Origin: Candidatus Nealsonbacteria bacterium
GTDB taxonomy: Bacteria > Patescibacteriota > Minisyncoccia > Minisyncoccales > RBG-13-42-11
Assembly (NCBI GenBank): GCA_026396115.1
Contig: JAPLXL010000001.1
Span: forward strand, 2,761 to 66,760
Length of the DNA stretch: 64,000 bases
Direction of reading: 5' to 3'
The notes under the pieces are model-generated. The model was not told the DNA's origin. It made no database searches and saw only the letters and a list, made by a program, of their open reading frames with translations. Of this stretch, positions 5,008-63,916 are shown one piece after another. The position numbers and the translations under genes were made by a program. The first letter of the stretch is position 1. Each line of letters starts with the position of its first letter.

Positions 5008-5066
5008 GGCGAAGAGAACTCTGTTCTCTTCTTCACCTTCGTCCCGCTATCGCGGGACTCGGTAAT
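5008..5066 (+). repeat. Family-1 palindromic mini-element, short form
   Basis: GGCGAAGAGAAC-TCT-GTTCTCTTC TTCACCTTCG TCCCGC-TAT-CGCGGGA CTCGGTAAT. Confidence 0.85.
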
Positions 5067-5089
5067 TAATTTTTAATCTCGACTTTTTG

Positions 5090-5404
5090 TCAAGGCGTAA
5101 GTTGTTTTAATACTCCTTCCAGTTCTTTTTGCTCTTCTTCGGTCATTGGCTTCGGCTGGGTCGGAGTTAATTGTTTTAAAAGCTCCTCTTGTTCTCTTTT
5201 GTCTTCTTCGGTTAAGGGTTCTGGTTCTGCCGGGGTTAATCTTTCTAAAACTTCCTCTATGGTTTCTTCTTTTTCTGGGGCAACCTCTTTTTCAGAAGAA
5301 ATTTTCCCTTTTTGAAAAAGAGCCACAGAGATAATGATGCTGAAGACCAAAACTACTGCTATTGAAATTCCGATAATAATGTTTTTGTTAATTTTTGGCA
5401 TCAT
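5090..5404 (-). CDS. Small membrane-anchored Glu/Pro-rich protein with MMPKINKNI leader
   Basis: 104 aa. The N-terminus MMPKINKNIIIGISIAVVLVF is shared with 9844-10353 and 6989-7621. There is an internal repeat LTPAEPEP / LTPTQPKP / LKQLTP. Confidence 0.55.
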   Translation of the reverse strand: MMPKINKNIIIGISIAVVLVFSIIISVALFQKGKISSEKEVAPEKEETIEEVLERLTPAEPEPLTEEDKREQEELLKQLTPTQPKPMTEEEQKELEGVLKQLTP

Positions 5405-5527
5405 ACATTTTAAATTCTAATTTCTAATTTCTGCCTTGTTAGAAAGAGAAAAACAAGAAAATACAAAATTGTCTTTTTTGATAAAGTTATATTCATTACA
5501 CCGGGAAGCCATCCAGCAGGATTCTAA

Positions 5528-6838
5528 TTAAATTTTCAAAAACCCATCAAATAAATTAACAATCTCGGCGAAAAGATTCTTGAACCAAGTAGTCGGAGGC
5601 ACCTCTTGGTATTCAGGAAGAGGAAGGGTAATAGCCACTTGGCGAGTAGTATCACAACTGCCAGCCGGAGTAAGACTATTATCAGTTATGGTTAGTCTGA
5701 CTGTTTTTGGTCCAGTAGTAGTATAAGTAGTGGTTGCATTACCCTTTGTTGTGGAAATCTGGCCATTACCAAAATCCCATAAATATGAAATAGACCCACC
5801 AGTAGAACAACTATATTCAGTATTACCAGGGGAAGAATAACATTTAGAATTATCAGTAAAAGTTACTACCTCTCCAATTGCTGGGTTTTGAGGAGAAAGA
5901 GTGAAATCGGAATAAGGATAAGAGTGGCTGACAGTGGTAAATGATTCTGGAGGAGGGGTATTGTTTTGGTAGACGATCCAATCAGTAGAAGTAGTGTCTT
6001 GGCTATCCCAGACTTTTAGTCGCCAATAATAAGTTGTATTCCAGGAAAGAGTTGGATAAGGTGATTGGATAACAAATGCTTGAGATTGACCAGTTGAACC
6101 AGTTATTTTGCCAGTATCCAAGACTAGAGGGGAGAAACCAGAAATAGCGGCTACTTGAATCTGATAGGCAGATTGACTATCTCCTGGGTCAGAAAACTGC
6201 CATTTCAACCGAACCAGAGGGTAACCGGTAATTCCACAATAATCTGTTGAGTTTGGAGGATCGACCGAAAGATTAATAGCTGAAGGCGGTTGGTTGAAAA
6301 TGAAGGAAGTTATTACTTTGTAGTTTGAAGTGCCGCAAACCCCTTGATTGCTACAATTAAAACTAATCCAGCCAATAACCATATCTGACCAAGCCCAGCT
6401 GGAAAATTCGCCATTCTCAGTATTAATATAAACTCCGTAATTTGAACCTTTCAATTTTATCCAACCATCCCAGCCGTCGCCATAATTCAATGCCCTTGCC
6501 CAGCCGGAAACTTCGCCGCTGCCAGTAGTATCCACTTTTGTCGAATAATTGGGTAATGTGGGATAAGGACCGGCTGGCGCAAAGTGAATCCAGCCAATAT
6601 GCTCTGACCAGGCATAACCTGAAAAAGTTCCATCGCTATTTATATTTACACCGTAATTCCCTGTCCCACAAGTTCCCTGATTTGTACAATTAAAACTAAT
6701 CCAACCAATATTCTCTGACCAAGCCCAGCCAGAAACATTATCTCCTGACCCCGCTTGGACTTCTCCGGTAAAAAGAAAACTAAAAACTGCAAATAATGTT
6801 ATTGTAATCGCTAAAAATTTTTTGTTCATAAAAAACAC
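5528..6838 (-). CDS. Secreted repeat protein with C-terminal PKD-like domain
   Basis: Signal peptide. Four copies of the motif SGWAWSENIGWISFNC / SGYAWSEHIGWIHF / SSWAWSDMVIGWISFNC. The C-terminal VVTFTDNS...YLWDFGNG...TYTTTGPKTVRLTITDN looks like a PKD domain. Confidence 0.7.
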   Translation of the reverse strand: MFFMNKKFLAITITLFAVFSFLFTGEVQAGSGDNVSGWAWSENIGWISFNCTNQGTCGTGNYGVNINSDGTFSGYAWSEHIGWIHFAPAGPYPTLPNYSTKVDTTGSGEVSGWARALNYGDGWDGWIKLKGSNYGVYINTENGEFSSWAWSDMVIGWISFNCSNQGVCGTSNYKVITSFIFNQPPSAINLSVDPPNSTDYCGITGYPLVRLKWQFSDPGDSQSAYQIQVAAISGFSPLVLDTGKITGSTGQSQAFVIQSPYPTLSWNTTYYWRLKVWDSQDTTSTDWIVYQNNTPPPESFTTVSHSYPYSDFTLSPQNPAIGEVVTFTDNSKCYSSPGNTEYSCSTGGSISYLWDFGNGQISTTKGNATTTYTTTGPKTVRLTITDNSLTPAGSCDTTRQVAITLPLPEYQEVPPTTWFKNLFAEIVNLFDGFLKI

Positions 6839-6988
6839 GGTGAATTAATTTTTCTTGTTTCATTTTACCACAAGTGAGCAAAATGTCGCCTGTGGAAAAC
6901 TAAGCAATGTTTGGAGGCCCGACCTACAAACATTTAATTTCCGAAGAGTCAAACCCGTGTGAGTGTTACAAGTACCCATTGTCCCTTG

Positions 6989-11555: not shown

Positions 11556-12830
11556 TTAGTCCTGAGTTGTTTTAGTCGTCTTTTTCTTTTTGATTTCTTT
11601 TTCAACAGGCGAAGAGGACTTCGTCCTCTTCTTCACCTTCGCTTCCATAGATGGAAGCTCGGTTTCTAATTTTTCTCCCTCCTCTTCTTTTTTATCTTTT
11701 TCGTCCTCTCTTGGAGATCTGATGTCTATTTTCCAACCGGTTAGTTTTGCCGCCAATCTTACATTCTGACCATCTTTGCCAATAGCCAAAGACAATTGAT
11801 CTTCGGAAATAATAACTTGGGCTTTGTTTTTGGGCATTATTTTTACCTCTAAGGACTTGGCAGGCGACAAGGAATTGGCAATATACTTTTCTGGCTCCGG
11901 AGAATATGCGACAATATCAATTTTTTCTCCTGCCAACTCATTAATTACAGCCATAACCCTCGTTCCTTTTTGGCCAATCATGCTGCCAATAGGGTCAACT
12001 CCTTCAATGTCGGAGCATACCGCAATTTTAGACCTGGAACCTGGCTCTCTGGCGATTGACTTTATCTGAACTTGACCTGAAGAAACTTCCGGCACCTCCA
12101 ACTCAAAAAGTTTTGAAATTAATTTGGGGTAAGCCCGAGATAAAATTATGGCCGGCCCTCTTGGCGTTTCTTCAACTTTTAAAAGATAAACCTTGAGCCG
12201 TTGGCCCGGCCGATAAAATTCTCCCGGCACCTGTTCTTCTTTTGGCAAGACGCCAAGGGTTTTGCCAATATCTAAAAAAACATTTCTTCCTTCAATTCTT
12301 TGAACAATTCCGGAAATTATTTCTCCTTCCTTGGCCTTGTATTCATCCAAAATACTTTCTTTTTCTGCTTCTCTAATTCTTTGTAAAATAACTTGTTTTG
12401 CGGTCTGGGCAGCAATCCGACCATAATCTATTTTTGTTTCCAAGGGAATTTCTAATTCTTGAGCAACCTTAATCTTTGGGTTTATTTTTTTTGCTTCTTT
12501 GAGCATAATATGCTTTTCAGGATTAAAACGAACTTTTTTACCGGCCGAAACTTCGCCGGCCACGGGCTTTTCTCCCACCTTCGTTTCCATTTGTGAAAGC
12601 TCGGTTTCAGAATAAATCATGTCTTTATCGATAATTAATTTTACTTGCCAAAACTTAACATCGCCTGATTCCGGATCAAGTTTAGCTTTGATTATCTGTC
12701 CTTTTTTTCCGTAATCTTTTTTATAGGCAGCGGCAATCGCCATTTCAATGGTTCCCAAAACCTTTTCCGTAGAAATACCTTTTTCTTCGGCAATCTGAGC
12801 AATGGCTGACATGAAGTTTTTTATATCCAT
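11556..12830 (-). CDS. nusA: Transcription termination/antitermination factor NusA; C-terminal tail partly encoded by a repeat element
   Basis: The N-terminal NusA signature, S1 domain and two KH-like regions are recognisable. The last ~40 aa overlap family-1 element 11608-11665. Confidence 0.92.
   Translation of the reverse strand: MDIKNFMSAIAQIAEEKGISTEKVLGTIEMAIAAAYKKDYGKKGQIIKAKLDPESGDVKFWQVKLIIDKDMIYSETELSQMETKVGEKPVAGEVSAGKKVRFNPEKHIMLKEAKKINPKIKVAQELEIPLETKIDYGRIAAQTAKQVILQRIREAEKESILDEYKAKEGEIISGIVQRIEGRNVFLDIGKTLGVLPKEEQVPGEFYRPGQRLKVYLLKVEETPRGPAIILSRAYPKLISKLFELEVPEVSSGQVQIKSIAREPGSRSKIAVCSDIEGVDPIGSMIGQKGTRVMAVINELAGEKIDIVAYSPEPEKYIANSLSPAKSLEVKIMPKNKAQVIISEDQLSLAIGKDGQNVRLAAKLTGWKIDIRSPREDEKDKKEEEGEKLETELPSMEAKVKKRTKSSSPVEKEIKKKKTTKTTQD
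11608..11665 (+). repeat. Family-1 mini-element inside the 3' end of nusA
   Basis: GGCGAAGAGGAC-TTC-GTCCTCTTC TTCACCTTCG CTTCCAT-AGA-TGGAAG CTCGGTTTC. Confidence 0.85.
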
Positions 12831-16371: not shown

Positions 16372-16445
16372 GCCCCGCTAGCTCAATTCGGTAGAGCAGA
16401 TCCCTCTTAAGGATAAGGTTGCAGGTTCGAGCCCTGCGCGGGGCA
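16372..16445 (+). tRNA. tRNA-Lys (anticodon CUU)
   Basis: Hand-folded: acceptor GCCCCGC/GCGGGGC, D-arm GCTC-AATTCGGTA-GAGC, anticodon loop CTCTTAA, T-arm GCAGG-TTCGAGC-CCTGC. Confidence 0.9.
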
Positions 16446-16524
16446 CTGGAAATTGGGGCGGGGTGAAAATCCTGGCGGGGGCACCAAAAACAATTTTTAA
16501 TTTTCAATTATTAATTTTAAAATA

Positions 16525-16622
16525 GTCGAAGAGATAAATCTCTTCTTCACCTACCCGAGTCGCAACGAAGGGTAGAGAAGAAGGAATCTTCTTTGACTTC
16601 GCTTCCTTCGGAAGCTCGATAT
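16525..16622 (+). repeat. Family-1 mini-element, long form, ending at the rpsO start codon
   Basis: GTCGAAGAGAT-AA-ATCTCTTC ... CTTTGACTTCG CTTCC-TTC-GGAAG CTCGATAT, then ATG. Confidence 0.85.
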
Positions 16623-16889
16623 ATGATTACGCCAGAAGAAAAAGAAAAAATAATCAAAAGCTATAAACTGCACGATTTAGATACGGGTTCTCCGGAAGTT
16701 CAGGTTGCTCTGTTGTCAGAAGAAATCAAGCAATTGCTTTTACATTTGAAAAAGCATGCTAAAGATTTTCATTCAAAAAGAGGGTTATTAAAAATGGTTT
16801 CAAAAAGAAGGACTTTGTTAAATTATTTAAAGCAGGAAGACACAAAAAGATATAATAGTATAATTAAAAAAATAGGGTTGAAGAAATAA
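16623..16889 (+). CDS. rpsO: 30S ribosomal protein S15
   Basis: [38 protein letters not shown]...; 88 aa. The 10 extra N-terminal codons in the track ORF lie in the repeat element. Confidence 0.93.
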
Positions 16890-16900
16890 ATTTTTACGTT

Positions 16901-17407
16901 ATGATAATTAAACATTTCGGACAACGCGTAGCCGTCTTAATTGACGTTCAAAATCTTTATCACTCTGCCAAAAATCTTTATGGAGCCCGCGTTAATTTCG
17001 GAGCCATTTTAAAATCAACTGTTTCTGGCAGAATCCTAATCAGGGCTTTTGCTTACGTTGTCAGAACAAAAAGCGGAGAAGAAAAGCCGTTTTTTGAGGC
17101 CTTAATCAAGCTAGGAATTGAAACCAGGGTTAGAGATCTGCAGGAATTTTTTGGCGGCTTAAAAAAAGCTGACTGGGACGTGGGAATTACGGTTGATGCC
17201 ATAAGAATTGCTCAAAGCTGCGATACAATTATTTTGTGTTCTGGCGATGGCGACTTTATCCAGTTGGTAGAATATTTGAAAAACCAAGGAAAAAGAGTGG
17301 AAATCGTTGCTTTTGGAAGATCGTCTTCTTCTAAATTAAAAGAAGTTGCAGATGAGTTTATTGATTTGGAAAAAAGCCTGGAAAAATATTTATTAAAAAC
17401 AAAATGA
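16901..17407 (+). CDS. NYN/LabA-like domain protein
   Basis: RVAVLIDVQNLYHSAKN...ILCSGDGDFIQLVEYLKNQGKRVEIVAF. Confidence 0.8.
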   Translation: MIIKHFGQRVAVLIDVQNLYHSAKNLYGARVNFGAILKSTVSGRILIRAFAYVVRTKSGEEKPFFEALIKLGIETRVRDLQEFFGGLKKADWDVGITVDAIRIAQSCDTIILCSGDGDFIQLVEYLKNQGKRVEIVAFGRSSSSKLKEVADEFIDLEKSLEKYLLKTK

Positions 17408-17409
17408 TG

Positions 17410-17469
17410 CTCAATGAATTTTCAATTCATTTCAATCTTCGATGTTCAATAAATTTTTAATTTATTTCA
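17410..17469 (+). repeat. Family-2 double-hairpin element abutting the pnp start codon
   Basis: AATGAATT-TTC-AATTCATT ... AATAAATT-TTT-AATTTATT TCA, then ATG. Confidence 0.75.
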
Positions 17470-19602
17470 ATGAATAAAGAAATTTTCAAACTAAATATTG
17501 GCGGAAAAGAGTTAAAGGTTGAAGTCAGAAATTTAGCCGAACAAGCTTCAGGCGATGTTTTAGTTCAGTATGGAGAAACTATGGTTTTGGCGACAGCAGT
17601 TATGTCAAATTACGAAAGAGAAGGAATAGATTTTTTTCCTTTAACGGTTGATTACGAAGAAAGATATTATGCCGCCGGCAAAATTCTGGGCTCAAGATAT
17701 ATCAGAAGAGAGAGCCGGCCTTCAGACGAGGCCATTTTAACTTCAAGATTTATTGACAGAGCAATAAGACCAAGATTTCCCAAGCACTTAAAAAAAGAGG
17801 TTCAGGTAGTAGTTACTTGCCTTTCCTGGGACAAGGAAAACGATCCCGACATTATTGGTTTGCTTGCTGCTTCCCTGGCCTTATCTATTTCTAATATTCC
17901 TTGGTCAGGCCCGATAGCAGTTTTAAGGGTTGGCAAAAACGAAAAAGATTTTATTCTTAATCCTATTTATCAAGAAAGAGAAAAAAATGATCTGGATTTG
18001 GCAATAGCGGGGGTGAAATCTCATGAAATTTTAATCAATATGATTGAAATGGAGGGAAGCGAAGTAACAGAAGATATGATTTTAAAAGCAGTAGATTTTG
18101 CTAAACCTACTCTTGAAAAACTGATTGATTTTCAAAAAGAAATTGTTAAAAAAGTTGGCAAGGAAAAAGATAAAATAGAAACACCTGCAAAGGATTTGGA
18201 ACTGGAAAAAGAAATTAAAGATTTTCTTGGCTCAAGATTAGAAAAAGCTCTTTTCCGAAAAGACAAAGTTAGCCGAATGGATGAAGTTAATGCCTTGAAA
18301 GAAGAATTGATTTATTATATTCAAGGAAAATATCCTGTTGGTAGGGGCAAAGAGGATAAATCCTCTTCTTTACCCTTAGCTGCGGCTCGGGTTTTTGAAG
18401 AAGAAATAGAAAAATTAGTTCATGAAAATGTTATTAAATTTGAAAAGAGGCCTGACAATAGAAAAATTGATGAAATAAGAAATATCCAATGTGAAGTGGG
18501 ACTATTACCCAGAACCCATGGCTCCGGTCTTTTTATTAGAGGACAAACTAAAGCTCTCTCCATTTTAACCTTGGGGGCACCGGGGGATGTAAGGTTGCTT
18601 GAGGGAATGGAAGCAACCTACAAAAAAAGATTTATGCACCACTATAATTTCCCTCCTTATTCTGTCGGAGAAGTAAAACCAATGAGGGGGCCGGGCAGAA
18701 GAGAAATAGGACATGGAATGCTGGCAGAAAAAGCTTTAATGTCATTGGTCCCCAGTTTTGATGATTTTCCTTATACCATTAGAATAGTCACCGAAATTCT
18801 CTCGTCTAACGGTTCAACCTCGATGGCCTCTGTTTCAAGTAGTTCTCTGGCCTTAATGGATGCCGGAGTGCCAATAAAAAGACCGGCTGCCGGAATTGCT
18901 TTAGGATTAATGCAGGACAATAAAGGAGATTACAAAATTTTAACCGACATTCAGGGACCGGAAGATCATCACGGCGACATGGATTTCAAAATCGCCGGGA
19001 CAGAAAAAGGAATTACCGCCATTCAAATGGATGTTAAAAATGATGGAATTGACAAAGAAATTTTAGAAAAAACCTTGTCTCAAGGAAAAAAAGCAAGGCT
19101 TCAAATTTTAAACGAAATGGCAAAAGTAATTTCAAAACCAAGGCCAGAACTATCGTCCCATGCTCCCAGAATATTGATATTACAAATAAATCCTATTAAA
19201 ATAAGAGAAGTGATTGGTCCTGGCGGAAAAGTAATCAATGAAATTATTGATGAGTGTGGAGCTTCAATAGACATTGAGGACTCGGGCAGAATTTTTGTAA
19301 CAGCCGAAAGGGAAGAGGCAGCAAAAAAAGCCGTTGAAAGGATAAAGAACATTACTCGCGAAGTTAAGGTAAACGAAGTTTTTCAGGGAAAAGTTAAAAG
19401 AATTTTGGATTTTGGAGCTTTTGTTGAAATTTTGCCCGGACAAGAAGGATTGGTTCATATTTCTCAATTGGCTCCTTATCACGTCAATAAAGTGGAAGAT
19501 ATTGTTAAGACGGGGGACATTATCCCGGTTAAAGTAATTTCAATTGACGAACAGGGAAGAATAAATCTGTCTCTCAAAGAGGCAAAAAGTAAGCCCCGTT
19601 AG
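17470..19602 (+). CDS. pnp: Polyribonucleotide nucleotidyltransferase (PNPase)
   Basis: Two RNase PH-like halves, then KH and S1 at the C-terminus. It carries an in-frame family-1 repeat insertion at 18346-18393. Confidence 0.95.
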   Translation: MNKEIFKLNIGGKELKVEVRNLAEQASGDVLVQYGETMVLATAVMSNYEREGIDFFPLTVDYEERYYAAGKILGSRYIRRESRPSDEAILTSRFIDRAIRPRFPKHLKKEVQVVVTCLSWDKENDPDIIGLLAASLALSISNIPWSGPIAVLRVGKNEKDFILNPIYQEREKNDLDLAIAGVKSHEILINMIEMEGSEVTEDMILKAVDFAKPTLEKLIDFQKEIVKKVGKEKDKIETPAKDLELEKEIKDFLGSRLEKALFRKDKVSRMDEVNALKEELIYYIQGKYPVGRGKEDKSSSLPLAAARVFEEEIEKLVHENVIKFEKRPDNRKIDEIRNIQCEVGLLPRTHGSGLFIRGQTKALSILTLGAPGDVRLLEGMEATYKKRFMHHYNFPPYSVGEVKPMRGPGRREIGHGMLAEKALMSLVPSFDDFPYTIRIVTEILSSNGSTSMASVSSSSLALMDAGVPIKRPAAGIALGLMQDNKGDYKILTDIQGPEDHHGDMDFKIAGTEKGITAIQMDVKNDGIDKEILEKTLSQGKKARLQILNEMAKVISKPRPELSSHAPRILILQINPIKIREVIGPGGKVINEIIDECGASIDIEDSGRIFVTAEREEAAKKAVERIKNITREVKVNEVFQGKVKRILDFGAFVEILPGQEGLVHISQLAPYHVNKVEDIVKTGDIIPVKVISIDEQGRINLSLKEAKSKPR
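18346..18393 (+). repeat. Family-1 mini-element, in-frame inside pnp
   Basis: GGCAAAGAGGAT-AAA-TCCTCTTC TTTACCCTTAGCTGCGGCTCGGGTT; 48 nt encoding GKEDKSSSLPLAAARV. Confidence 0.75.
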
Positions 19603-50240: not shown

Positions 50241-50489
50241 ATGAAAGAGAAAATTGAGAAGATTATAAAATACTTAAATAAATATCTTCCCGACATTCTG
50301 TTTCTAATAGGAGTTTGGGTTGCATCTTATAATTTATTAAGACCATCTCAAAAAGTAGGACTTCTACCGTCTTTGCCATCACTTACACACACCGAATATT
50401 TCACAGAGTATAAGGTTTTGGGAATAATGTTAATTGCGCTTGCTCTTGATATAGCTATTAGACGCTATTCCGCTAAAAGGAATAAATAG
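50241..50489 (+). CDS. Small membrane protein (MKEKIEKI head)
   Basis: 82 aa, two hydrophobic segments. Confidence 0.5.
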   Translation: MKEKIEKIIKYLNKYLPDILFLIGVWVASYNLLRPSQKVGLLPSLPSLTHTEYFTEYKVLGIMLIALALDIAIRRYSAKRNK

Positions 50490-50528
50490 TGAGTAGCGAG
50501 GTGGGGTAAAATAAGGTAAAATAAATCT

Positions 50529-50942: not shown

Positions 50943-50946
50943 ATCT

Positions 50947-51513
50947 ATGAAAGAAAAAATTAAGAAAATTATATGGATTTCTGGTGGGTGCGATTATGGA
51001 AAAACGGCATTTGTAGATTCTATAATCAAAGAATTTAAAAATAAAAATAAGAAAACCTACAAATTAGACGGAAAAGATTTCATAGGTTTTTTAGTTAAAA
51101 ATATAAGGAATAAGAATCCTATTGAGAATTTTGTATCTCGTTTTCAAAACCATGATTTGCTGGTGTTGGACGATATAGATTATGGTTTATTAAGTAAACC
51201 AGCCACCCAAAGAGCAGTTAAAGAGGTAATACAAAGGATAACTGATAACAATAAAACCAAAATAATCTTGATTACACAAAAAAGAGCGAGGAAGATGAGG
51301 AAACTGAAGTTTGACAGCAATTGTTGTGAGTATATCCGATTAAAAGCCCCTTCAACTGATTTCAAGATAAAATTAGTTAAAGAGTGGTTGGAAAAAGAAA
51401 AACTTGCTATCCCACAAGATAAAATTGAAGAAATCGTAAACAAATCTAATAATTTATTCCAACTTAAGGGATTATTGAATCAAATTTCTTTTCCCACAAA
51501 ATATAGCGAGTAG
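50947..51513 (+). CDS. P-loop NTPase, DnaA/DnaC-like AAA core (MKEKIKKI head)
   Basis: A Walker A-like GGCDYGKTAF and a Walker B LLVLDDIDY. Confidence 0.55.
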   Translation: MKEKIKKIIWISGGCDYGKTAFVDSIIKEFKNKNKKTYKLDGKDFIGFLVKNIRNKNPIENFVSRFQNHDLLVLDDIDYGLLSKPATQRAVKEVIQRITDNNKTKIILITQKRARKMRKLKFDSNCCEYIRLKAPSTDFKIKLVKEWLEKEKLAIPQDKIEEIVNKSNNLFQLKGLLNQISFPTKYSE

Positions 51514-51551
51514 CAGGGGCACGGTAGGGCAAAATGAGGTAAAATAAATCT

Positions 51552-51827
51552 ATGAAAGAAAAAATTAAGAAAATTTTATTCGTAATCGCCGAAGTCGGAA
51601 CAGTTACCTGGGCAATTGTAGGAATGGGAACCGTAGTGGCAACCCTAACTAATATCCTTCAAGCATTTACAACTGGACAGATAGGCAAACTACCAGCGAC
51701 TCAACAAGCGATTTTTCGGCTCTCAGAAACAGCAGGTTTTAGTTATCTTATAATAAAGCTATTATTTTATTTTCTTTCGGCAGCTTTAATTCTTTATCTA
51801 TTAAGAAAATATGAAAGGAAAAATTAA
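51552..51827 (+). CDS. Small membrane protein (MKEKIKKI head)
   Basis: 91 aa, two TM segments. Confidence 0.5.
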   Translation: MKEKIKKILFVIAEVGTVTWAIVGMGTVVATLTNILQAFTTGQIGKLPATQQAIFRLSETAGFSYLIIKLLFYFLSAALILYLLRKYERKN

Positions 51828-51836
51828 GAAAACAAA

Positions 51837-51861
51837 ACGCCCATCACTGGGTGTTTTTTTA
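51837..51861 (+). terminator. Intrinsic terminator ending the rightward small-gene array
   Basis: ACGCCCA-TCAC-TGGGTGT followed by T7. Confidence 0.7.
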
Positions 51862-52175
51862 TTCCCTTTTTTATAGTGTCTAATCTGTTGTCTTTCTTTT
51901 GTTTTTGTTCTTGTTTTTTCATAGCCGAGTCATTTACTCGTCTTCTGCTTTTAAGCTCCACAGAATCGATCCTGGTTGTTCAAGAGTCGTCTATTTTGTT
52001 AGTTTTACCGTCGTTTTGGCTGATAATGCCGTAAGTTGGTTTACCTGTCTCTAAATAAAAAACCCGATAATGATGGGCGTTTTTTATTTAGGATAGTAAT
52101 TTTTGAAAAGTTGTGATACTCTAAAAATGTAACCTTAATTCAATCAAATTCGACAAATTAGTCTAAAAATTTAAC

Positions 52176-53012
52176 ATGGCTAATCTTTTTCAATTAAACA
52201 AAAAATATGGAGAATGGGCTGAAAACACAGTTTTCCATTATTTTAAAGAGAACAGAGATAAAATCGGCTTAGATGTTTTTTATTACGGATCGCAAGTGGC
52301 TACACGCAAAAAAGACACGACGGATGCCCCACTAAGACCCGATTTTATTATTGTTAAAACTCAAAATGTTAAATTTTTGGAGAAGAAATACAACTTAGAT
52401 TTTAATAATATTGATGCCGAACGAATTAAAGAATTGTTTAATCTTAATGAAGACTCCTTCAATTTTATAAAAGATAATCCTCATCTCTGGCTGACAAAGA
52501 TATTAGACAAAACTAAGTTCATGAAAGATTTAGTTTCAAAAGCACATTGTAGATTAGAAATAAAATCAGGCTTCGGTTTTTTTGTCCAAAAAAGATACGA
52601 AAAAGGGCAATATAATATTATTGTAGGAAGTGATTTCCAAAAAAGAATGAACGTTCTGAATAGAAGATTTAACTGTAAGCTTAAAACTTATGTGGCCTAC
52701 GTTCAATTAAATAAAGTTTTTATAGCCGAATTGAATAAGATATTTGGTAAAGGTGGCGAATCAATTGTAAGACTTTATGAAAGACGAGGCACTTCAGATA
52801 TAAATAAAGTAAATACGCAAAATCTTAACTTTCTTAAGAGTTTTGAATTCGCAGACGTAGAGGGAGTTGTAGAAGAAAAAAACGGAGAATACTCCGTTAA
52901 GGCAAAACCATATATAGAGATCGTTGGAGGCACAGTAAGATTTAATTTAGACATGCCTCCTGGCATTCTCAAAAATGTAATAATAGAAATTATTAAGAAT
53001 CTAAAAGAATAA
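52176..53012 (+). CDS. Probable type II restriction endonuclease (PD-ExK)
   Basis: LRPDFIIV ... CRLEIKSG fits PD...ExK. It converges on, and overlaps by 12 nt, the adjacent methyltransferase. Confidence 0.6.
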   Translation: MANLFQLNKKYGEWAENTVFHYFKENRDKIGLDVFYYGSQVATRKKDTTDAPLRPDFIIVKTQNVKFLEKKYNLDFNNIDAERIKELFNLNEDSFNFIKDNPHLWLTKILDKTKFMKDLVSKAHCRLEIKSGFGFFVQKRYEKGQYNIIVGSDFQKRMNVLNRRFNCKLKTYVAYVQLNKVFIAELNKIFGKGGESIVRLYERRGTSDINKVNTQNLNFLKSFEFADVEGVVEEKNGEYSVKAKPYIEIVGGTVRFNLDMPPGILKNVIIEIIKNLKE

Positions 53013-54767
53013 TTTTTTTAAAAGACCATCGATTAAATTTCTATTTTTCTCTTCCATATTTTGATTTTTAATTATTCCATCTACTAATTTTACTATTTGG
53101 TTGTGAATATCAACCTCTTTTTTATTACCCCAACTTACTAATCTGAGAGGTGCTTCTTCTATCGCACTTTGGCTATACTGTATTCTATCTCCTCTGTGCG
53201 GCCCCTTTGTTCTATACCAAATATTGAACCAAGTAGAATTAAGATAACCTAAAATATATTTTAAATTTTCTTTTACAATTACATCTTTATTTCTCACTAA
53301 TACCGCACAATCACTACCACCATAGTATGGTTTATCCGTAAAAGCAAATCTACTTATTTTCGCCCTATCTAAGACAGGCACAAATATTTTTTCATCTCTC
53401 ATTGATTGTTTAAATAAGCCTATATTACGAGGAGTCGCATGATGAAACCACAATACTTTCTCGTATCTTTTTTTCGCTCTTTCTTTATAAGGAAGGAGTT
53501 TTTTATAAATATTGGGGCATAATTTTTTTAACGTTTTTTCATTTTCAATACTATCTATCCATATAAAATATGAAGGGTTCTCGACAAAATATCTTCTTAT
53601 ATTTGTTGCTTTAACTATAGGGATAGTATATTTTAATTCAATTCTTGAGAGTTTGGGTAGTTCTTCATTCGTAAGATGAAATGCTTCATCAAATCCAGTT
53701 ACTGTTCCTACCCCAATTTTGAAGATGTGTTTTAGTCTTAAATAATTACTTTCTAAAATATCTTTTGGATTTCGCTTTAGCACATAATAGTCTGAACTAC
53801 CCAATTTTATAGAATTCACATCCTCCTCTCTGGTGTTTAAAAGTTTAAAATCTTTTTTATCAAATAGATTTATAATGGGAATTGTTCCCAAGTTCTTTGT
53901 ATTTACAAAGGGAATGTTTTTTCTGCATGCTTTTTCTATTTTATCAATGACTTCTTTCTTTTGAGGAGAAACTAATCCCCACATAAGAGAATTAGGGAAT
54001 TGTGGAGTCCAAAAACATTCATAACCATCCTCCATTAAAAAATCTTTCGAATCTAATAATTTAAGATAATTACTGATATTTTTTAATATTTCTTGAGGTC
54101 CTCCAACTCTTTTTTTATACTCCACTACCTTTATTGATTTTCTGAAACCAGCAGAAGTTCCTCCTGATTTAATATATTTTAAAATTATATTGTTCGGGTA
54201 AGCGTCTTTAAATAATTTTAATTCACCGAAATGAACGATAATTTCAAAAAATCCATAATTAGTTAAATAATGTCTTAATTTACTGGCATGAGTTGAATTA
54301 AACCAGAAATAGGGAACAATAAATATAAGCTCTCCTCCTATTTTCAATTTTTCAACTGACCATATAATAAATGGGTAAAGAAGGTCTGCCTCGCCATTTA
54401 ATAAATCCTTCCAAAAAGAGTCCCTTTCTAAAAATTTTCTCGTTTCGGATTTAATATTATTCCAATGGACATAGGGAGGATTTCCTATTATTAAATCAAA
54501 TTTTTCATTCCTACTTGTTTTTAAAAAGTCCTGCAATTGTATAGAGACGCCATCTACTTTTTTGGCTAATTTTGGATCAATTTCATAAGACTTTATATTT
54601 CGGAACCCTTTTTCTAATAGAGATTTTATAAATACTCCTTCACCTGCACATGGTTCTAATATTAAAGAACCTTTCTTTTTAGAAATTAGATTTACCATAA
54701 AGTCTGCCACCTCTTTAGAGGTAAAGTATTGCCCCAACATAATCTTTTTATTCATCAATTTCACCAT
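53001..54767 (-). CDS. N6-adenine DNA methyltransferase (gamma class, Eco57I/TaqI-like) with C-terminal target-recognition domain
   Basis: Motif I LEPCAGEGVF and motif IV GNPPYV. Confidence 0.85.
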   Translation of the reverse strand: MVKLMNKKIMLGQYFTSKEVADFMVNLISKKKGSLILEPCAGEGVFIKSLLEKGFRNIKSYEIDPKLAKKVDGVSIQLQDFLKTSRNEKFDLIIGNPPYVHWNNIKSETRKFLERDSFWKDLLNGEADLLYPFIIWSVEKLKIGGELIFIVPYFWFNSTHASKLRHYLTNYGFFEIIVHFGELKLFKDAYPNNIILKYIKSGGTSAGFRKSIKVVEYKKRVGGPQEILKNISNYLKLLDSKDFLMEDGYECFWTPQFPNSLMWGLVSPQKKEVIDKIEKACRKNIPFVNTKNLGTIPIINLFDKKDFKLLNTREEDVNSIKLGSSDYYVLKRNPKDILESNYLRLKHIFKIGVGTVTGFDEAFHLTNEELPKLSRIELKYTIPIVKATNIRRYFVENPSYFIWIDSIENEKTLKKLCPNIYKKLLPYKERAKKRYEKVLWFHHATPRNIGLFKQSMRDEKIFVPVLDRAKISRFAFTDKPYYGGSDCAVLVRNKDVIVKENLKYILGYLNSTWFNIWYRTKGPHRGDRIQYSQSAIEEAPLRLVSWGNKKEVDIHNQIVKLVDGIIKNQNMEEKNRNLIDGLLKKLFF

Positions 54768-54795
54768 AGCTTGTTCGCTAAAGGATTTATATAAA

Positions 54796-55038
54796 TTATT
54801 TTTTCCATTTAGTTAAACCCCACACACCTTCTCCTAATGGATAAAATCTTATTTCTTTTTTTTGTTTCTTACGCCTCTTATTTTCTAAACTCATATCAAC
54901 ACGAAGAGTTGCTTCCGGAGTCTTTCCTTTTGTAATTATTAGCCCCTTTTTTATAGCTATTTCTATAATATCTTTAACGTGTAATGGTTTTTTATAATCC
55001 TTTAAAATTTTATATGCAGCCTCTGTTTTACTAAGCAT
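54796..55038 (-). CDS. HARE-HTH-like small winged-helix protein
   Basis: MLSKTEAAYKILKDYKKPLHVKDIIEIAIKKGLI...GEGVWGLTKW, upstream of the methyltransferase. Confidence 0.6.
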   Translation of the reverse strand: MLSKTEAAYKILKDYKKPLHVKDIIEIAIKKGLIITKGKTPEATLRVDMSLENKRRKKQKKEIRFYPLGEGVWGLTKWKK

Positions 55039-55102
55039 ACTTTATTAACTATATTTTTATTTATGATAAATTTTAGCCGACCCTTTATCTATATTATATT
55101 TC

Positions 55103-55131
55103 AGTCAACTATAAGTCAACCAAAAGTCAAC
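55103..55131. repeat. Three helically phased AGTCAAC repeats (11-bp period), candidate operator
   Basis: AGTCAAC at 55103, 55114 and 55125, lying 65-95 nt upstream of the HARE-HTH/methyltransferase operon. Confidence 0.7.
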
Positions 55132-55244
55132 CATCATTATTTTAGATAACATTGTTTCTTTTTCTTGATGTTCCTAATGCCCTTTGAAAATGCACCATAT
55201 CTTCAAGATTGAGCAACTTCGAATAGTTTCCGTTAGCTGAACCA

Positions 55245-55275
55245 ACAAAAAAGCCCGTCGCCGGGCAGTTTTTAT
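55245..55275 (-). terminator. Intrinsic terminator after the 411-aa gene
   Basis: The minus strand reads GCCCGG-CGAC-GGGC with a T6 tail (hairpin at 55253-55266). Confidence 0.7.
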
Positions 55276-55302
55276 TTTAGTTAAACTGACACTTAATCAC
55301 TA

Positions 55303-56538
55303 TTATTTAAATTCTTTAGGTGAAGTTGGGTATTCTTTTTCTTGACCAAACATTTTCTCACTCCTAAATAGTTTTTTACACAATTCTATTGTCTTATTTT
55401 CAAAATCATCAACTTTATAGTCCTTAGGTTCGCTGTAAATACAAAAATCAAAAGAAACCATTTTATGGTTTATAGGCTCACTTGCTATGCCTAAAGCTTC
55501 TTTTACTCTTGCGATTTTCCTGGTGCATGCAGTGAGGGTAAACAACCTTTCTCTCCTTTTGTTTTTTTCCTCGGGAGTATACAAAAAGAGAAATGCAATT
55601 TCTGGCCTATGAGGAAAGATAAACATTCTGTAAGCTGGTTTATTGGTTTTGGCCGCCTTTATTGCTTTTCCAATAGCTGCTTTGGCTAACATTCTCCTTT
55701 CTAATCTTCGTAATCTACCCAAAATAGTTGCCACCTTAATATATAGTTGATCCTTAGAGGTATGGGTTTTTTCAATAATGTCATCTATATAATAGCTAAT
55801 CCTATCTGCTCCTACTCTTTCTGCTACTTGGTTTGCATATTTGCCTTTTTTATATTCCTCCCAAAACCCAATCAATGTTACCATATCTGCTTTCTCTTGA
55901 TCAGGAATTGGTTTAAAATGGCGTTCATGAATCCGATAATAGGCGACCAGTTCGCTTTCATCAGTCATATTAAACTTCATATCTTTTGTTATTTTTTCTC
56001 TTTGTTCAAGATATTCAAAGAAATCGGTTGGTGTATCAAACTCATTAACGACATACATGAAATCATTTAAATCAAAAATCTGAGGTGTAAATCCATAATC
56101 AAATATTTTAGGATTTATATCCTTAGCCTCCCTTGCAGAAACAATAGGCATAATATCCTGTTCTAAAACAACAAGATAAAACACTCTTTTAATATTATTT
56201 TTATCAAATTCGAAAGACCCCCTACGATTATTACTTAAGAAAATTCTATGGTTGCTAAATAAGATGCTTTTTGAAAATTTCAACTGTCTTATGCAATCGA
56301 GAGTTGTTTTCCTAATATAGGTGTTGATATTCCCGCTCTTTGGGAATGATTTTGTCCTACATTGCACAACCACCAGAGCATCGTCGAATAAGATAAGGAG
56401 GTCGCATATTTCTCTCTCATACCTACCTTCACGCACCTTAGGATTATCAAAAATAAAATCCTCAAAAAAAGTCTTTTTTAAAAAAGACTTAGTTTTTTGT
56501 TCTGCTAATTTCCCTTTGTTTATTTCGGGCGTAATCAT
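55303..56538 (-). CDS. Hypothetical protein with N-terminal NERD/PD-(D/E)xK-like nuclease region (candidate defence gene)
   Basis: KGKLAEQKTKSFL...EREICDLLILFDDALVVVQCRTKS resembles the NERD layout. The C-terminal ~250 aa are unrecognised. Confidence 0.4.
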   Translation of the reverse strand: MITPEINKGKLAEQKTKSFLKKTFFEDFIFDNPKVREGRYEREICDLLILFDDALVVVQCRTKSFPKSGNINTYIRKTTLDCIRQLKFSKSILFSNHRIFLSNNRRGSFEFDKNNIKRVFYLVVLEQDIMPIVSAREAKDINPKIFDYGFTPQIFDLNDFMYVVNEFDTPTDFFEYLEQREKITKDMKFNMTDESELVAYYRIHERHFKPIPDQEKADMVTLIGFWEEYKKGKYANQVAERVGADRISYYIDDIIEKTHTSKDQLYIKVATILGRLRRLERRMLAKAAIGKAIKAAKTNKPAYRMFIFPHRPEIAFLFLYTPEEKNKRRERLFTLTACTRKIARVKEALGIASEPINHKMVSFDFCIYSEPKDYKVDDFENKTIELCKKLFRSEKMFGQEKEYPTSPKEFK

Positions 56539-56558
56539 TATAAAAGATTGTTTTATAA

Positions 56559-56888
56559 CTATTTACTAAAAATCCACTTGTATCTTTTTAATTTATTAAG
56601 ATATATTAACTCAGTTTCTAATTTACTAAGTTTATTTTCGTATTCTTTCTTTAAATCTGCGTTTGCTTTTTCTCTTATACCAGAAAAAGCCAAACCTCTT
56701 TCGGCCATTTCGTTATCTAATTCCTCCTTTCGTTTTGGATACCATCTTTTTACCTCTTCAATTTCTAATTCTTTCAATTTTATTTCCTTATCAATTTTAA
56801 ATCCTTTTAATTTTCTATTTTCCGCATAAAGACAAATACCCCATAGTCCAAGAACAACATTAAGAATTTTTGATAAAGTATCCCACAT
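56559..56888 (-). CDS. Small membrane plus coiled-coil protein
   Basis: 109 aa with an N-terminal TM segment (VVLGLWGICLYA) and then charged helices. Confidence 0.45.
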   Translation of the reverse strand: MWDTLSKILNVVLGLWGICLYAENRKLKGFKIDKEIKLKELEIEEVKRWYPKRKEELDNEMAERGLAFSGIREKANADLKKEYENKLSKLETELIYLNKLKRYKWIFSK

Positions 56889-56987
56889 ATTTTTGAGCTA
56901 ATTGTTATCTTTATTAAATTTTCACTTCTAATTTAAACTCGGGATAATTATTAGGACATTGTCCATAACTTCTCAAAGATATGGACA

Positions 56988-57452
56988 CTATTCCAAAACT
57001 TTTCTGACATCCGTCTTGCTCGTAATTTTGAAGTATGTCTTATTGTGGTCAAAATATCTTGAGTATCCTTTTAGGCTTCTTCTTCCATTTACCCCCAACC
57101 AAAGACTTTTTCGGTGAGGTTCTATCGTGTATGGGCATTGGTTAGAGCCAGTCCAATAAACCAATCTTCTTTTAGTATATTCTTCATGGATGGTTGGATT
57201 GGTGTTCTTTAAATATTGCCTTAATTTCTGAAATTTTCCTTTAAGGTCTTCGTCCAATACCTTATTTTGAAGAGAGGTAAGCGTATATTTCCTCTTTAGT
57301 TTATGCCTATTTCTTGATTTCGGTGTGCCGTCTTCATTCAAGAAGTTCTGGTAGGTGTTGGCTTTTCTATTGATTTCTTCTCTCGGAAGGACGCTGGTGC
57401 TTACGAATATGCTGAACTTGTCCGTGTCTGTTGTATTGTGGCGACAGTCCAT
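56988..57452 (-). CDS. Basic hypothetical protein at the right end of the element
   Basis: 154-aa ORF. Its annotated ATG lies across the junction in core/host sequence, so the true start is uncertain. Confidence 0.35.
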   Translation of the reverse strand: MDCRHNTTDTDKFSIFVSTSVLPREEINRKANTYQNFLNEDGTPKSRNRHKLKRKYTLTSLQNKVLDEDLKGKFQKLRQYLKNTNPTIHEEYTKRRLVYWTGSNQCPYTIEPHRKSLWLGVNGRRSLKGYSRYFDHNKTYFKITSKTDVRKVLE

Positions 57453-59646: not shown

Positions 59647-59794
59647 TTACCGAGCTTCCATTTATGGAAGCGAAGTCGAAGAAGATTCCTTCTTCTCCAC
59701 CTCAGCTGAAGCTTCGGTAGGTGAAGAAGAGTGCGAAGAAAAGTTTTTCTTCTTTCGTCTCGTCTTTGACTCGACGGTCGAAGTTCTCTTCGCC
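59647..59794 (-). repeat. Family-1 mini-element, longest composite copy, 21 nt upstream of the pilB-like start
   Basis: It contains the 61-nt block identical to 19661-19721 plus a block that is the reverse complement of 32698-32770. Confidence 0.9.
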
Positions 59795-59883
59795 TAGTTA
59801 AAATTAGCTCAAATTTAGCGAAAAGTCAATAAGTCCCGTTAGAAATTTTGTAATTCAAAAAGATTTTTACCGGAAGTTAAAAT

Positions 59884-62189: not shown

Positions 62190-62227
62190 ATTGAGCACCG
62201 GAAAGAATTTTTAATTAAAACAAAAAG

Positions 62228-63217
62228 ATGAAATTTAATCTTCAAATTAAATTGCTTTCTTTAGTAGTGATGGTGGTCAGTCTTGTATTGATAATTCTAT
62301 TATTGCAGACTATTTCCAGAGAAAGACAGATTTTTCAAGTCAGCTTTAAAGAGAAGGCTGAGGTTTTAACTTTAGCTCTCGATGCCGGTATTGGGAGTTT
62401 TGAGGAATTAAAAGATACAGCAAAACTTCAGTCTAATATTTATAAATTTATATGGTTATACCCTGAGATTGTCAAGATATCCATTAGTGTACCCAGTCCC
62501 GAAGGTTTAAAAATTGTAGCCTCTAATGCAACAGAAGAGATTGGAACTCTAACTGGGCTAGAAAATACTATTTCTTATGAGCAGGGCAGAGTTTTAACTC
62601 AAACCTTACTTTTGCCTGATGACACCAAAGTCTTTAGCTCTATCATCCCTATTCGTGTCGGAGGACAAAGAGTCGGAACTTACGATATAAGACTTTCTCT
62701 CGAGACCGAAGAAAAAACTATTGCCCAGCGACAAAAAGAAGTTGTTTTAACGATTCTAGTGAGTATTGTGATTATCATTATTATCCTCTTTCTTTTACTC
62801 AGCAAAATGGTTGTCCTACCCGTTGCTGAAATTAAAAAAGGACTGGAAATGATTGGGCAAGGTCAATTAAGTTGGCGAATAACCCCGAGGAGTCAAGATG
62901 AGATTGGAGATTTAGCCAGGGGAGTTAATGAAATGAGTGAAAAACTTGAAGAATCTTACTATGGACTGGAGAAAAAGATAGCAGAAAGAACAGAAGAACT
63001 TCAGGAAGCAAGATCGGTTTTGGAAATAAAGGTTCAGGCAAGAACCAGAGAATTGAAGGATTTGGCAGAAAGTCTCGAAAAACAGGTTGAACAAAGAACA
63101 AAAGAACTTCAAGAAAAAATAGAGGAGTTAGAAAGATTTAACAGATTGGCTGTTGGTAGAGAATTAAAAATGATAGAGCTGAAAAAAGAATTAAGAAAAT
63201 TAAAAAAAGAACAATAA
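62228..63217 (+). CDS. Membrane protein with extracytoplasmic domain, HAMP domain and coiled-coil tail (no kinase or MCP output recognised)
   Basis: Two TM segments, the HAMP region VVLPVAEIKKGLEMIGQGQLSWRI..DEIGDLARGVNEMSEKL, then heptad-rich ERTEEL/ARTREL/QRTKEL repeats. Confidence 0.65.
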   Translation: MKFNLQIKLLSLVVMVVSLVLIILLLQTISRERQIFQVSFKEKAEVLTLALDAGIGSFEELKDTAKLQSNIYKFIWLYPEIVKISISVPSPEGLKIVASNATEEIGTLTGLENTISYEQGRVLTQTLLLPDDTKVFSSIIPIRVGGQRVGTYDIRLSLETEEKTIAQRQKEVVLTILVSIVIIIIILFLLLSKMVVLPVAEIKKGLEMIGQGQLSWRITPRSQDEIGDLARGVNEMSEKLEESYYGLEKKIAERTEELQEARSVLEIKVQARTRELKDLAESLEKQVEQRTKELQEKIEELERFNRLAVGRELKMIELKKELRKLKKEQ

Positions 63218-63263
63218 AAATTGAAAGGTCGAAAATAAAATAATATTTGTTTGAGCTAAAATT

Positions 63264-63851
63264 ATGTCTATAATTTCCGAAGAAGACCTTGAAAAAATAA
63301 AAAGAACAGAAGGAGAAATAATTGGTTCTTCTTTGAAATGCGATAGGGAATTTATCATAGAAAAAGAAGACAGGGAAGGATTAAGAAAAGTAGAGGAAGA
63401 AATGGAAAAATTAGGTTACCCTTTAACGTATGAGGAAATAGATAAATATAAATGGTATCCGGTCCAGCAAGATATTATTTCTCTTCTCTTGGCCCAAAAA
63501 ATTTTTAATTGGGATGACGAAACAATACGAGAGTGGGGTCGTTGGGGAGCCAAAACCAATTTTATTGTTAAATTATTAACCAGGTTAATTTCTAAACAAA
63601 CGATAGTTAAATCAGCGCCTAAACTCTGGAGAAAATATTATACAGTGGGCGAGTTAGATATTAAATTAGATTTCAAAAAGAGAATTGGTATTGCGACGTT
63701 AAAAAATTTTATTCTCTATTCAGTTCACCGCCATTTTTTAGAAGGATATTTTTATCAAATAATGTCTCTTATAGTACCATCGCGGAATTTAAAAGTAGGA
63801 GGAAGTAAAAGCGAAGAACCTAATGTTCATCAATTTGAGATAAGTTGGTAG
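63264..63851 (+). CDS. Hypothetical protein
   Basis: 195-aa ORF with no confident family. Confidence 0.5.
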   Translation: MSIISEEDLEKIKRTEGEIIGSSLKCDREFIIEKEDREGLRKVEEEMEKLGYPLTYEEIDKYKWYPVQQDIISLLLAQKIFNWDDETIREWGRWGAKTNFIVKLLTRLISKQTIVKSAPKLWRKYYTVGELDIKLDFKKRIGIATLKNFILYSVHRHFLEGYFYQIMSLIVPSRNLKVGGSKSEEPNVHQFEISW

Positions 63852-63859
63852 TTATAGAA

Positions 63860-63916
63860 GGCGAAGAGAACTTTGTTCTCTTTTTCACCTTCGTTTCCAT
63901 AAATGGAAGCTCGGTA
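63860..63916 (+). repeat. Family-1 mini-element, short form, running into an ATG
   Basis: GGCGAAGAGAAC-TTT-GTTCTCTTT TTCACCTTCG TTTCCAT-AAA-TGGAAG CTCGGTA, then ATG. Confidence 0.85.

Follow-up and report, generated by a model that had tools for sequence, protein, structure and literature searches.

A miniature hairpin element, probably mobile, dispersed through genomes of the Candidate Phyla Radiation

We analysed a window of 64,000 nucleotides from a Candidatus Nealsonbacteria bacterium (contig JAPLXL010000001.1, positions 2,761 to 66,760) and found that it carries many dispersed copies of a unit of about 55 nt built from two small hairpins. With a probability of about three in four, we judge these copies to be a miniature mobile DNA element that forms hairpins, is non-autonomous and occurs widely in the Candidate Phyla Radiation (CPR, or Patescibacteria). 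As a family of tiny mobile hairpins, of the REP (repetitive extragenic palindrome) or IS200-derived kind, the units have not been described before. Full-text literature searches returned no description of such elements in CPR, and no Rfam family matched the units, either over the whole window at the gathering threshold or over positions 16400-24100 at E<=5. CPR genomes are regarded as streamlined and repeat-poor, a view with which a 55-nt element every ~3-4 kb stands in contrast.

An earlier note on this DNA, made from its letters, had described a dispersed family of structured palindromes at 13 loci. A repeat finder recovered the hairpin unit family in the window, and we built a covariance model with a fixed two-hairpin structure from 58 aligned units of many genomes. 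With filters off, a scan of the entire window by this model gave matches at all 13 loci, with E-values from 4e-26 to 4e-4, and also revealed a degenerate unit at 12543-12605 in the N-terminal domain of NusA. One other match, at 37947-37991 on the minus strand, is native sequence of DnaA domain IV hit by chance and was discarded. Core unit patterns are not expected by chance (0 in 100 shuffles).

The basic unit, ~54-57 nt long, consists of hairpin 1 (AG(G/T)CGAAGAG, a loop, CTCTTC), a TTCAC-CTTCG linker, hairpin 2 and a terminal CTCGGT. Its ends, AGGCGAAG and CTCGGT, are not inverted repeats; the hairpins are subterminal, hairpin 1 beginning 4 nt inside the left end and hairpin 2 finishing 6 nt before the right end. 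The stem sequence of hairpin 2 is almost unconstrained, its 3' arm is usually purine-rich, and the distance from linker to terminus varies with it, from 13 to 19 nt or more. In the alignment of units, stem positions are paired in 96.2% of cells, compared with 82.1% in shuffles and ~55% in slid controls. Double-sided stem changes number 144, versus 44 in shuffles, and all six pairs of hairpin 2 covary. The linkers are single-stranded and conserved while the stems covary.

Linked diagnostic substitutions divide the units into three subfamilies: A (AGGCGAAG...TTCACC...CTCGGT), B (AGTCGAAGAGAT...TTCATC...CTCGAT) and C (AGTCAAAG...TCCACC, with a CAAAG 5' end and a TCCAC linker). Units also combine with one another. 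Whereas the earlier note took the long copies to share extra blocks, they consist of whole units inserted inversely or nested: the long forms are an outer unit with a complete second unit inverted within its linker. Tandem arrays, with the junction CTCGGT-AGG-CGAAG, occur in L160, L015 and L131 (here and below, such numbers denote loci and contigs from relatives and metagenomes), and in L017, L165, L243 and L209 one unit sits within hairpin 2 of another, in its loop or arm. Blocks of 45-61 nt are identical between unrelated loci of the window genome. The identity reported earlier between 19661-19721 and 59671-59731 was reproduced exactly (61/61), and two reverse-complement relations claimed among the long copies hold at 58/61 and 68/73 with coordinate offsets of 1-4 nt. 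Inverted doublets, such as those at 16524-16620 (z -3.4) and 31533-31628 (z -4.3), are predicted to form a single long rod, with hairpin 2 after it.

Each unit sits immediately 5' of NNN-T(G/A)A(A), in either orientation, and the triplet belongs to the target. We examined 86 short copies among the matches listed, picked regardless of their 3' flank. After CTCGGT and three free positions, T follows in 75%, G in 74% (A in 19%) and A in 95% of these copies, a triplet reported as positions +9 to +11 after CTCGGT; the background per position is 1.6% for TGA and 3% for TAA. Of 15 flanks in the window, 11 show TGA or TAA, and the third position is A in every one. Upward of 120 additional copies from metagenomes follow the target rule as well. 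Because empty sites keep the NNN-TGA/TAA triplet, T(G/A)A is target and not cargo. The TGA is conserved at sites that are not gene starts as well. Nested, tandem and inverse copies obey the same rule: the sequence directly 3' of the insert is AGG-TGAA, read on the other strand of the linker (GTGAAGAAG), for inverse inner units, the AGG-CGAA of another unit for tandem units, and AA-ATGG in the common CATAAATGG loop for nested units. Thus, the target rule explains the nested, tandem and inverse architecture.

The earlier note had proposed comparing filled and empty sites between strains, and this comparison, made with syntenic contigs from relatives whose flanks are 92-99% identical to the window, shows mobility. 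In the NusA C-terminal tail, the window and L001 have the unit and L002-L005 lack it, the difference being a clean in-frame indel of 57 nt. The unit at 5007-5063, with the 3' flank AAT-TAA, is missing from the orthologous site in L005. At the PNPase site the window has one unit, L001 two in tandem and L004 none. The site at 19640-19740 exists in three states, long in the window, short in L004 (without exactly the 45-nt inner unit) and empty in L001, where TTTTATGAA is kept. The long form at 31533-31628 is an exact 96-nt indel relative to L251, with near-identical flanks: the doublet is absent as a whole, and the empty site reads TTATAATAG followed directly by AATTGAAAATT. Both units at 23810-23933 are absent from L248, which reads TGATATAATTAACAAATA-ATG, and the rpsO unit is present in L001 and L235 and absent from L004. 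At 36103-36153 the unit was inserted within an AT-rich hairpin module (ATTGAAAAT loop) at AAT-TGAA; L248 is the same as the window there and L249 has the AT-rich modules only. The unit at 23130-23180, which also adjoins an AT-rich hairpin module, is shared with L001. Ten further orthologous filled/empty pairs were found among the metagenome loci.

No target duplication was seen in any filled/empty pair compared. Apparent duplications in AT-rich flanks (ATAATAGA/ATAATTGA at 31534, TAACTA at 59647) were dropped because the real empty sites show none. We conclude that the unit enters (or leaves) precisely, without target-site duplication or terminal inverted repeats. At the head of the VirB4-like gene, L250 is empty, with just 8 nt from the upstream stop to the ATG, and L248 and L251 hold at the same site a composite different from that of the window. 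Different units or composites at orthologous sites, as here and in L135, L156 and L162, indicate repeated hits or conversion.

The units are not confined to this genome. A metagenome scan with a pattern that fixes only hairpin 1 and the start of the linker returned at least 120 loci, nearly all true copies; 131 units lie in 457 kb of CPR loci, a density of ~1 unit per 3-4 kb, and the unit-bearing metagenomes include sediment and groundwater. In a scan of genomes, the pattern was loose and ~90% of matches arose by chance; true copies were found only in CPR-labelled genomes, namely Nealsonbacteria, Parcubacteria, Berkelbacteria and metagenome-assembled genomes (MAGs) titled Saccharibacteria. The NusA of the window is 100% identical to a protein of a Ca. 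Nealsonbacteria MAG. An exact-pattern scan of IMG/VR gave no unit and two chance-like matches only, and the covariance model found no unit in the integrated element at 44.8-57 kb of the window. Exact-protein matches for PilB and PrgI are only short contigs ending in units. The PilB and PrgI genes of the window are found on the short-read Logan contigs L124 and L125, which break off 72 and 38 nt upstream of the genes; since the window has units at these places, units are suggested to break assemblies. They would thus be a practical obstacle to MAG assembly and, as their presence differs between strains that are 95-99% identical, a possible strain marker.

Among the metagenome matches listed, 21 of the 116 copies with a terminus (~18%) lie inside long open reading frames (ORFs), in both orientations, and the other 95 are intergenic. 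The window has four such in-ORF copies, two in NusA and one each in PNPase and a coiled-coil/GH3 protein, and all are in frame. The consensus unit is free of stops in five of six frames. Copies within ORFs survive only when in frame and without stops, and there they contribute peptide segments to loops and tails. The PNPase unit (3' flank TTT-TGAAGAAG) encodes GKEDKSSSLPLAAAR and the composite in the coiled-coil/GH3 protein encodes KEDKSSSSATELSHSESEGEKEARLFDFAATR. At the N-terminal NusA site the Pfam NusA_N match covers 154 aa, compared with the 119 positions of the profile, and relatives hold other unit-derived inserts there. Recurrent insert peptides are KEDKSSS.., TELPSMEAKVKKRTKSSSP and GEESKLSSSPFAIAREGE; the same peptides recur at other NusA positions in other CPR genomes. 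The segments added to NusA and PNPase provide a concrete source for some lineage-specific insertions in CPR proteins.

Judged from its gene starts, the lineage looks largely leaderless or short-leadered and devoid of Shine-Dalgarno (SD) sequences, because an SD-like GGAG or GAGG precedes only 2 of 60 window genes and -10 boxes lie near the ATG. A TAnnnT ends 6-9 nt before the ATG in ~21 of the 60 genes, and 25 (~40%) start with ATGA. Many window ATGs have TGnTAnAAT-type -10 boxes 6-9 nt before them; in a second class of starts TAnnnT abuts the ATG. The earlier note was correct that no SD is visible at the elements, but this is a property of the whole genome and not of the element. Its distances between termini and start codons also held up: CTCGAT-AT-ATG at 16623 (rpsO, encoding S15), CTCGAT-AA-ATG at 23936, CTCGCT-AT-ATG at 32799 (VirB4-like ATPase) and CTCGGT-A-ATG at 63917, with 18 nt at 31647 and 23 nt at the pilB-like gene (ATG 59625). 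Termini meet start codons much more often than chance would allow: in 27 of the 95 intergenic metagenome copies among the matches listed, CTCGGT-NN-ATG begins a long ORF, and the genes headed in this way (for L11, L35, GroES, DnaE, S15, VirB4, a response regulator and others) are unrelated. This share of 28% exceeds ~2.5-fold a rough neutral expectation of ~11%, taken from intergenic TGA sites and ATGA starts, and it is possible that extra target preferences or some selective retention account for the excess.

Where a unit heads a gene, its 5' end comes 3-6 nt after a -10-like box, TAnnnT is enriched 9-12 nt upstream of that end, and the predicted transcription start coincides with it. The clearest flank promoter in the window, TTGATA-17-TGTTATAAT at 31502-31530, precedes the unit at 31533, and the -10 box TGATATAAT at 23796-23804 precedes the two units that sit between it and the ATG at 23936. 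Both promoters are also present in the empty sites of L251 and L248. Because the promoters lie in the flank and in empty alleles, the unit would be transcribed as a leader and not supply the promoter. Given the target rule and the frequent ATGA starts, many copies come to lie between a -10 box and an ATG or between coupled genes; units separate formerly abutting operon genes in several cases (yidC-jag in L136, L163 and L199, traC-virB4 in the window). Predicted folds leave the AUG unpaired, as in that of the rpsO leader. A conserved reading frame, or upstream ORF, ending at the TGA was rejected, since hairpin 2 is free to vary in length (13-19 nt).

These features bear on whether the unit is a domesticated 5' leader cassette, its RNA being functional in the gene-heading copies, an explanation that is compatible with mobility and that we consider a minor though real possibility. 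The RNA might act as a terminal hairpin that protects the 5' end, through an SD-like arm that is rich in purines (GGAAG, GGGGA) and lies 8 nt upstream of the AUG, or by cleavage between CTCGGU-NN and AUG that regenerates a leaderless mRNA. Such a role would account for conservation across CPR. It also fits the exact ATG spacing at unrelated genes and the excess of such copies, a predicted transcription start at the unit's 5' end with the AUG unpaired, the usually purine-rich 3' arm of hairpin 2 in a genome otherwise without SD, and the units that split formerly abutting operon genes, which still need translation. However, 22 of the 63 copies with both neighbours called are antisense, in-ORF copies occur in both orientations, and strains with 95-99% identity differ in whether they have the unit. 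The arm of hairpin 2 resembles an SD in some copies but not in others (for example TAAAAA, GCGGGG), the TGA comes from the target and is conserved away from starts too, and sense copies in essential ORFs speak against obligatory RNA cleavage. The earlier note had put forward, as one hypothesis, outward promoters within the elements; in this model a -35-like TTGACT and a -10-like GATAAT or GGTAAT would drive leaderless or short-leader mRNAs. Some long forms do have TTGACT followed 19 nt later by GATAAT or GATATA, and the terminus resembles a -10 hexamer with genes 0-23 nt beyond. Yet short units lack TTGACT, which arises at the junction of a nested inverted unit, and inside the element the -35/-10 distance is 19 nt or more and shifts with the variable hairpin, outside the 16-18 nt of sigma-70 promoters. 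With the ATG two nt past CTCGGT, there is no TAnnnT 6-9 nt upstream of it, and transcription beginning 6-8 nt beyond the -10-like terminus would start within the ORF. Convincing -10 boxes stand upstream of the unit, in empty alleles too, and one third of units are antisense or intragenic, so we hold internal promoters to be very improbable.

We give equally little credence to the units being structural DNA or RNA punctuation kept by selection, whether protein-binding sites, terminators, insulators or uptake sequences. The high density of units, their conserved single-stranded linkers and covarying stems, and the many copies between co-directional genes would suit such a role, for which the binding of gyrase and IHF by enterobacterial REP/BIME elements is a precedent (PMC6006769). 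Against terminators and insulators, which the earlier note had offered as an alternative, the hairpins are followed by TTCACCTTCG or CTCGGT without a U-tract or T-run, and copies stand in both orientations and, in ~18% of cases, inside ORFs. Presence that varies between near-identical strains also speaks against punctuation, nested self-insertion is hard to square with selection for a binding site, and the subfamily structure is typical of copying. Orphan or dispersed TIGR-like guide units, encoding stem-loop tigRNAs, are close to excluded. TIGR-Tas stem-loop arrays do occur in Patescibacteria; their stems are palindromic with a basal CUU, and an array can be embedded in frame in the tas gene (bioRxiv 10.64898/2026.09.09.750476), much as our units can sit in frame inside genes. 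The definition, though, requires box C/D motifs flanking a spacer pair and an array at a tas (Nop-domain) gene (bioRxiv 10.64898/2026.09.09.750476). The units have neither box C/D motifs nor a spacer pair, their variable part being a self-complementary stem; they are dispersed singly beside housekeeping genes, and a Pfam scan of 49 window ORFs revealed no Nop-domain Tas protein.

If the unit is a non-autonomous mobile element, as we prefer, a trans-acting single-strand enzyme (HUH/Y1, IS200/IS605- or RAYT-like) would recognise its subterminal hairpins and move it. Inverse insertion of one unit into the linker of another would yield a REPIN-like doublet. A unit dropped between a -10 box and an ATG, or between two abutting operon genes, would be transcribed there as a structured 5' leader ending two nt before an unpaired AUG. 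We tentatively prefer, at roughly one chance in three, the 'peel and paste' of IS200/IS605 or a REP/RAYT-like single-strand mechanism. Because no transposase was found, the argument for the mobilising mechanism is drawn from the anatomy of the units. Target-specific insertion without target-site duplication or terminal inverted repeats points to an undescribed single-strand transposition system in CPR.

Several observations weigh against mobility of this kind. Clustering of 1,212 ORFs from the loci revealed no recurrent neighbouring protein family, ~1 Mb of loci held no protein with an HUH-Y1 motif, and there was no transposase among the 49 window ORFs scanned, the sole recombinase being the serine recombinase of a separate integrated element. 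The conserved target is one-sided and 3 nt off the junction, which differs from the canonical IS200/IS605 arrangement. The linker's TTCA and TTCG complement the TGAA of the target and the CGAA of the unit itself, but covariation of this putative guide with the target or the left end is not supported, as subfamily C shows no matching change; strand-specific folding likewise found no backing, hairpin 1 mismatches being 16 A.C versus 12 G.T, without asymmetry. The filled/empty comparisons fit insertion and precise excision equally, and the two cannot be told apart by them. Finally, the near-identical consensus across CPR lineages, together with the gene-heading excess, may indicate that a function maintains some copies.

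A bolder proposal joins the two ideas: the unit may be a CPR-wide, self-propagating 5'-leader module for SD-less genomes, moved by a target-guided single-strand mechanism that reads NNN-T(G/A)A. We offer it as a speculation that is probably incorrect in this full form. If it is true, docking two nt before the AUG would let the leader module take over the expression of leaderless or coupled genes, through protection by the 5' hairpin, a purine-rich ribosome contact masked by a hairpin, or clipping that regenerates a leaderless mRNA. Under the preferred reading of a mobile element, too, the units rewrite the 5' ends of many unrelated genes in an apparently leaderless, SD-less lineage.

The window also contains a second, AT-rich hairpin repeat family, CAATAAATTTTCAATTTATTTCAATG, with four copies compared with 0 expected. 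These repeats stand directly before the ATG of pnp and of the dksA-like gene and are a frequent landing site for the GC-rich units. They are polymorphic: 35 nt at 17410 are absent from L004, and a 57-nt AT-rich block of L248 is absent from the window near 23770. A 33-nt hairpin, GCCCCGTTAGAAATGATATTTCTAAATGGGTAA, at 19593-19625 is flanked by a GTAA direct repeat, is absent from L001 and L004 and alters the C-terminus of PNPase; it may be a third type of small insert.

The GC content of the window is ~35%. Genes placed by Pfam are clpP, nusA, rpsO, pnp, a dksA-like gene, ksgA, a PrgI/VirB4 type IV secretion cluster, yidC, rnpA, dnaA, dnaN, pilB and tsaE. Since dnaA and dnaN (36810-39507) adjoin rnpA and yidC, the origin region of the chromosome probably falls within the window; the GC skew tracks the orientation of genes, with no clear switch. 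The block at ~44800-57000 is a probable integrated element, which besides the features in the table has a helix-turn-helix protein and five small ORFs with a common start region, TATGAAAGAAAAAATTAAGAAAA. A 96-nt direct duplicate (26078-26173 and 27878-27973, 99% identity) covers the start of a ComM/Mg-chelatase-like gene, the upstream copy lying 1.8 kb away, and a 9-nt tandem repeat, AGAGTGTTG, fills positions 1-110 with ~12 copies. In L004, an insertion of ~0.9 kb at 4700-5560, absent from the window, places an ORF between tRNA-like halves upstream of rpsO.

Table. Hairpin units and other features located in the window (positions refer to the window unless a contig is named).
Feature	Position	Strand	Score or basis	Context
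Short unit, subfamily A	5007-5063	+	77 bits, E 5e-24	between two minus-strand genes, antisense to both
Short unit	11607-11663	+	83 bits	NusA C-terminal tail, antisense, in frame, encodes TELPSMEAKVKKRTKSSSP
Degenerate unit	12543-12605	+	27.7 bits, E 3.5e-7	variable insertion loop of NusA N-terminal domain, antisense, in frame
Long form	16524-16620	+	model matches 16524-16559, 16570-16620 and 16554-16598(-)	before rpsO
Inverted inner unit	16554-16598	-	covariance model	within 16524-16620
Degenerate unit	18345-18391	+	25.6 bits	in frame, sense, in PNPase between two RNase PH domains
Long form	19640-19740	-	model matches	between PNPase and GH3-domain gene, antisense
Inverted inner unit	19664-19708	+	covariance model	within 19640-19740
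Composite, outer unit and inverted inner unit	21271-21371	+	outer parts 18.9 and 8.5 bits	in coiled-coil/GH3 protein
Inverted inner unit	21302-21356	-	55 bits, covariance model	within 21271-21371
Short unit, subfamily B	23130-23180	-	56 bits	AGTCGAAGAGAT...TTCATCTTCG...CTCGAC; between GH3 gene and dksA-like gene
First of two same-orientation units	23810-23866	+	72.8 bits	12-nt spacer to second unit
Second of two same-orientation units	23879-23933	+	54.3 bits	before ATG 23936
Long form	31533-31628	+	model matches	before PrgI-like gene, ATG 31647
Inverted inner unit	31562-31606	-	covariance model	within 31533-31628
Composite, module nested in 3' arm of hairpin 1	32696-32796	+	32.4 bits	before VirB4-like ATPase
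Short unit, subfamily B	36103-36153	+	51.8 bits	just downstream of rnpA
Triple composite	59649-59795	-	45.4, 26.6 and 15.3 bits	upstream of pilB-like gene; third module 59731-59775
Inverted inner unit	59674-59718	+	covariance model	within 59649-59795
Short unit, subfamily A	63859-63915	+	76.8 bits	terminus CTCGGT-A-ATG (63917)
AT-rich hairpin repeats	17412-17437, 17447-17472, 23193-23218 (+); 39509-39534 (-)			second repeat family
AT-rich hairpin repeats	L248 2727-2783			second repeat family
Large serine recombinase	44864-46543	-		integrated block
LOOT RNA	49000-49113		Rfam 84.6 bits	integrated block
Eco57I-like methylase	53001-54767			integrated block, restriction-modification

Among known systems, we compared the units with dispersed small repeats and with single-strand transposons. 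A classical miniature inverted-repeat transposable element is derived from an insertion sequence and moved by cut-and-paste, with terminal inverted repeats and target-site duplication, both of which are absent from the units. Like Correia elements (Neisseria), BOX and RUP (Streptococcus pneumoniae) and ERIC, the units are dispersed between genes, would enter transcripts and may alter expression, and like BOX they are modular. Unlike Correia and RUP, they have no terminal inverted repeats and no duplication of TA or other sequence, and the promoters that some of those families carry are not seen in the units. The resemblance to IS200/IS605, whose hallmarks are summarised together with those of REP/RAYT in PMC6006769, extends to the lack of terminal inverted repeats and target-site duplication, a small hairpin inside each end, insertion beside a short specific target, a precise empty site and insertion into one another. 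IS200/IS605 elements insert directly 3' of a conserved sequence of four or five nucleotides, which borders the left end and is read by a guide 5' of the hairpin foot (PMC6006769). In the units, by contrast, the T(G/A)A target is separated from the junction by three variable nt and does not abut it, one stem varies freely, the size is much smaller (~55 nt), and no TnpA was found in the 49 window ORFs.

With REP/REPIN-RAYT systems the units share high copy number, short covarying palindromes and non-autonomy, and their long forms, like REPINs, are inverted doublets that fold into a single long hairpin. The palindrome of a REP is tagged at one end by GTAG or CGTC (PMC3733652), whereas the hairpins of the unit are flanked by GGC/TTCAC and CTTCG/CTCGGT, with GTAG only at the tandem junctions CTCGGT-AGG. 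REPs are also extragenic and lineage-specific, while ~18% of the units lie in ORFs, with a defined target and one consensus across several CPR lineages. Rickettsia palindromic elements offer a further parallel, being palindromic, resident in a reduced genome and inserted in frame in protein-coding genes, essential ones among them, where they encode peptides in tolerant regions. The host phylum is different, however, and the likeness is one of behaviour only, with no sequence relation expected. Compared with the Rickettsia elements, the units are half to a third the size, modular and nested, and marked by a precise target and an association with start codons.

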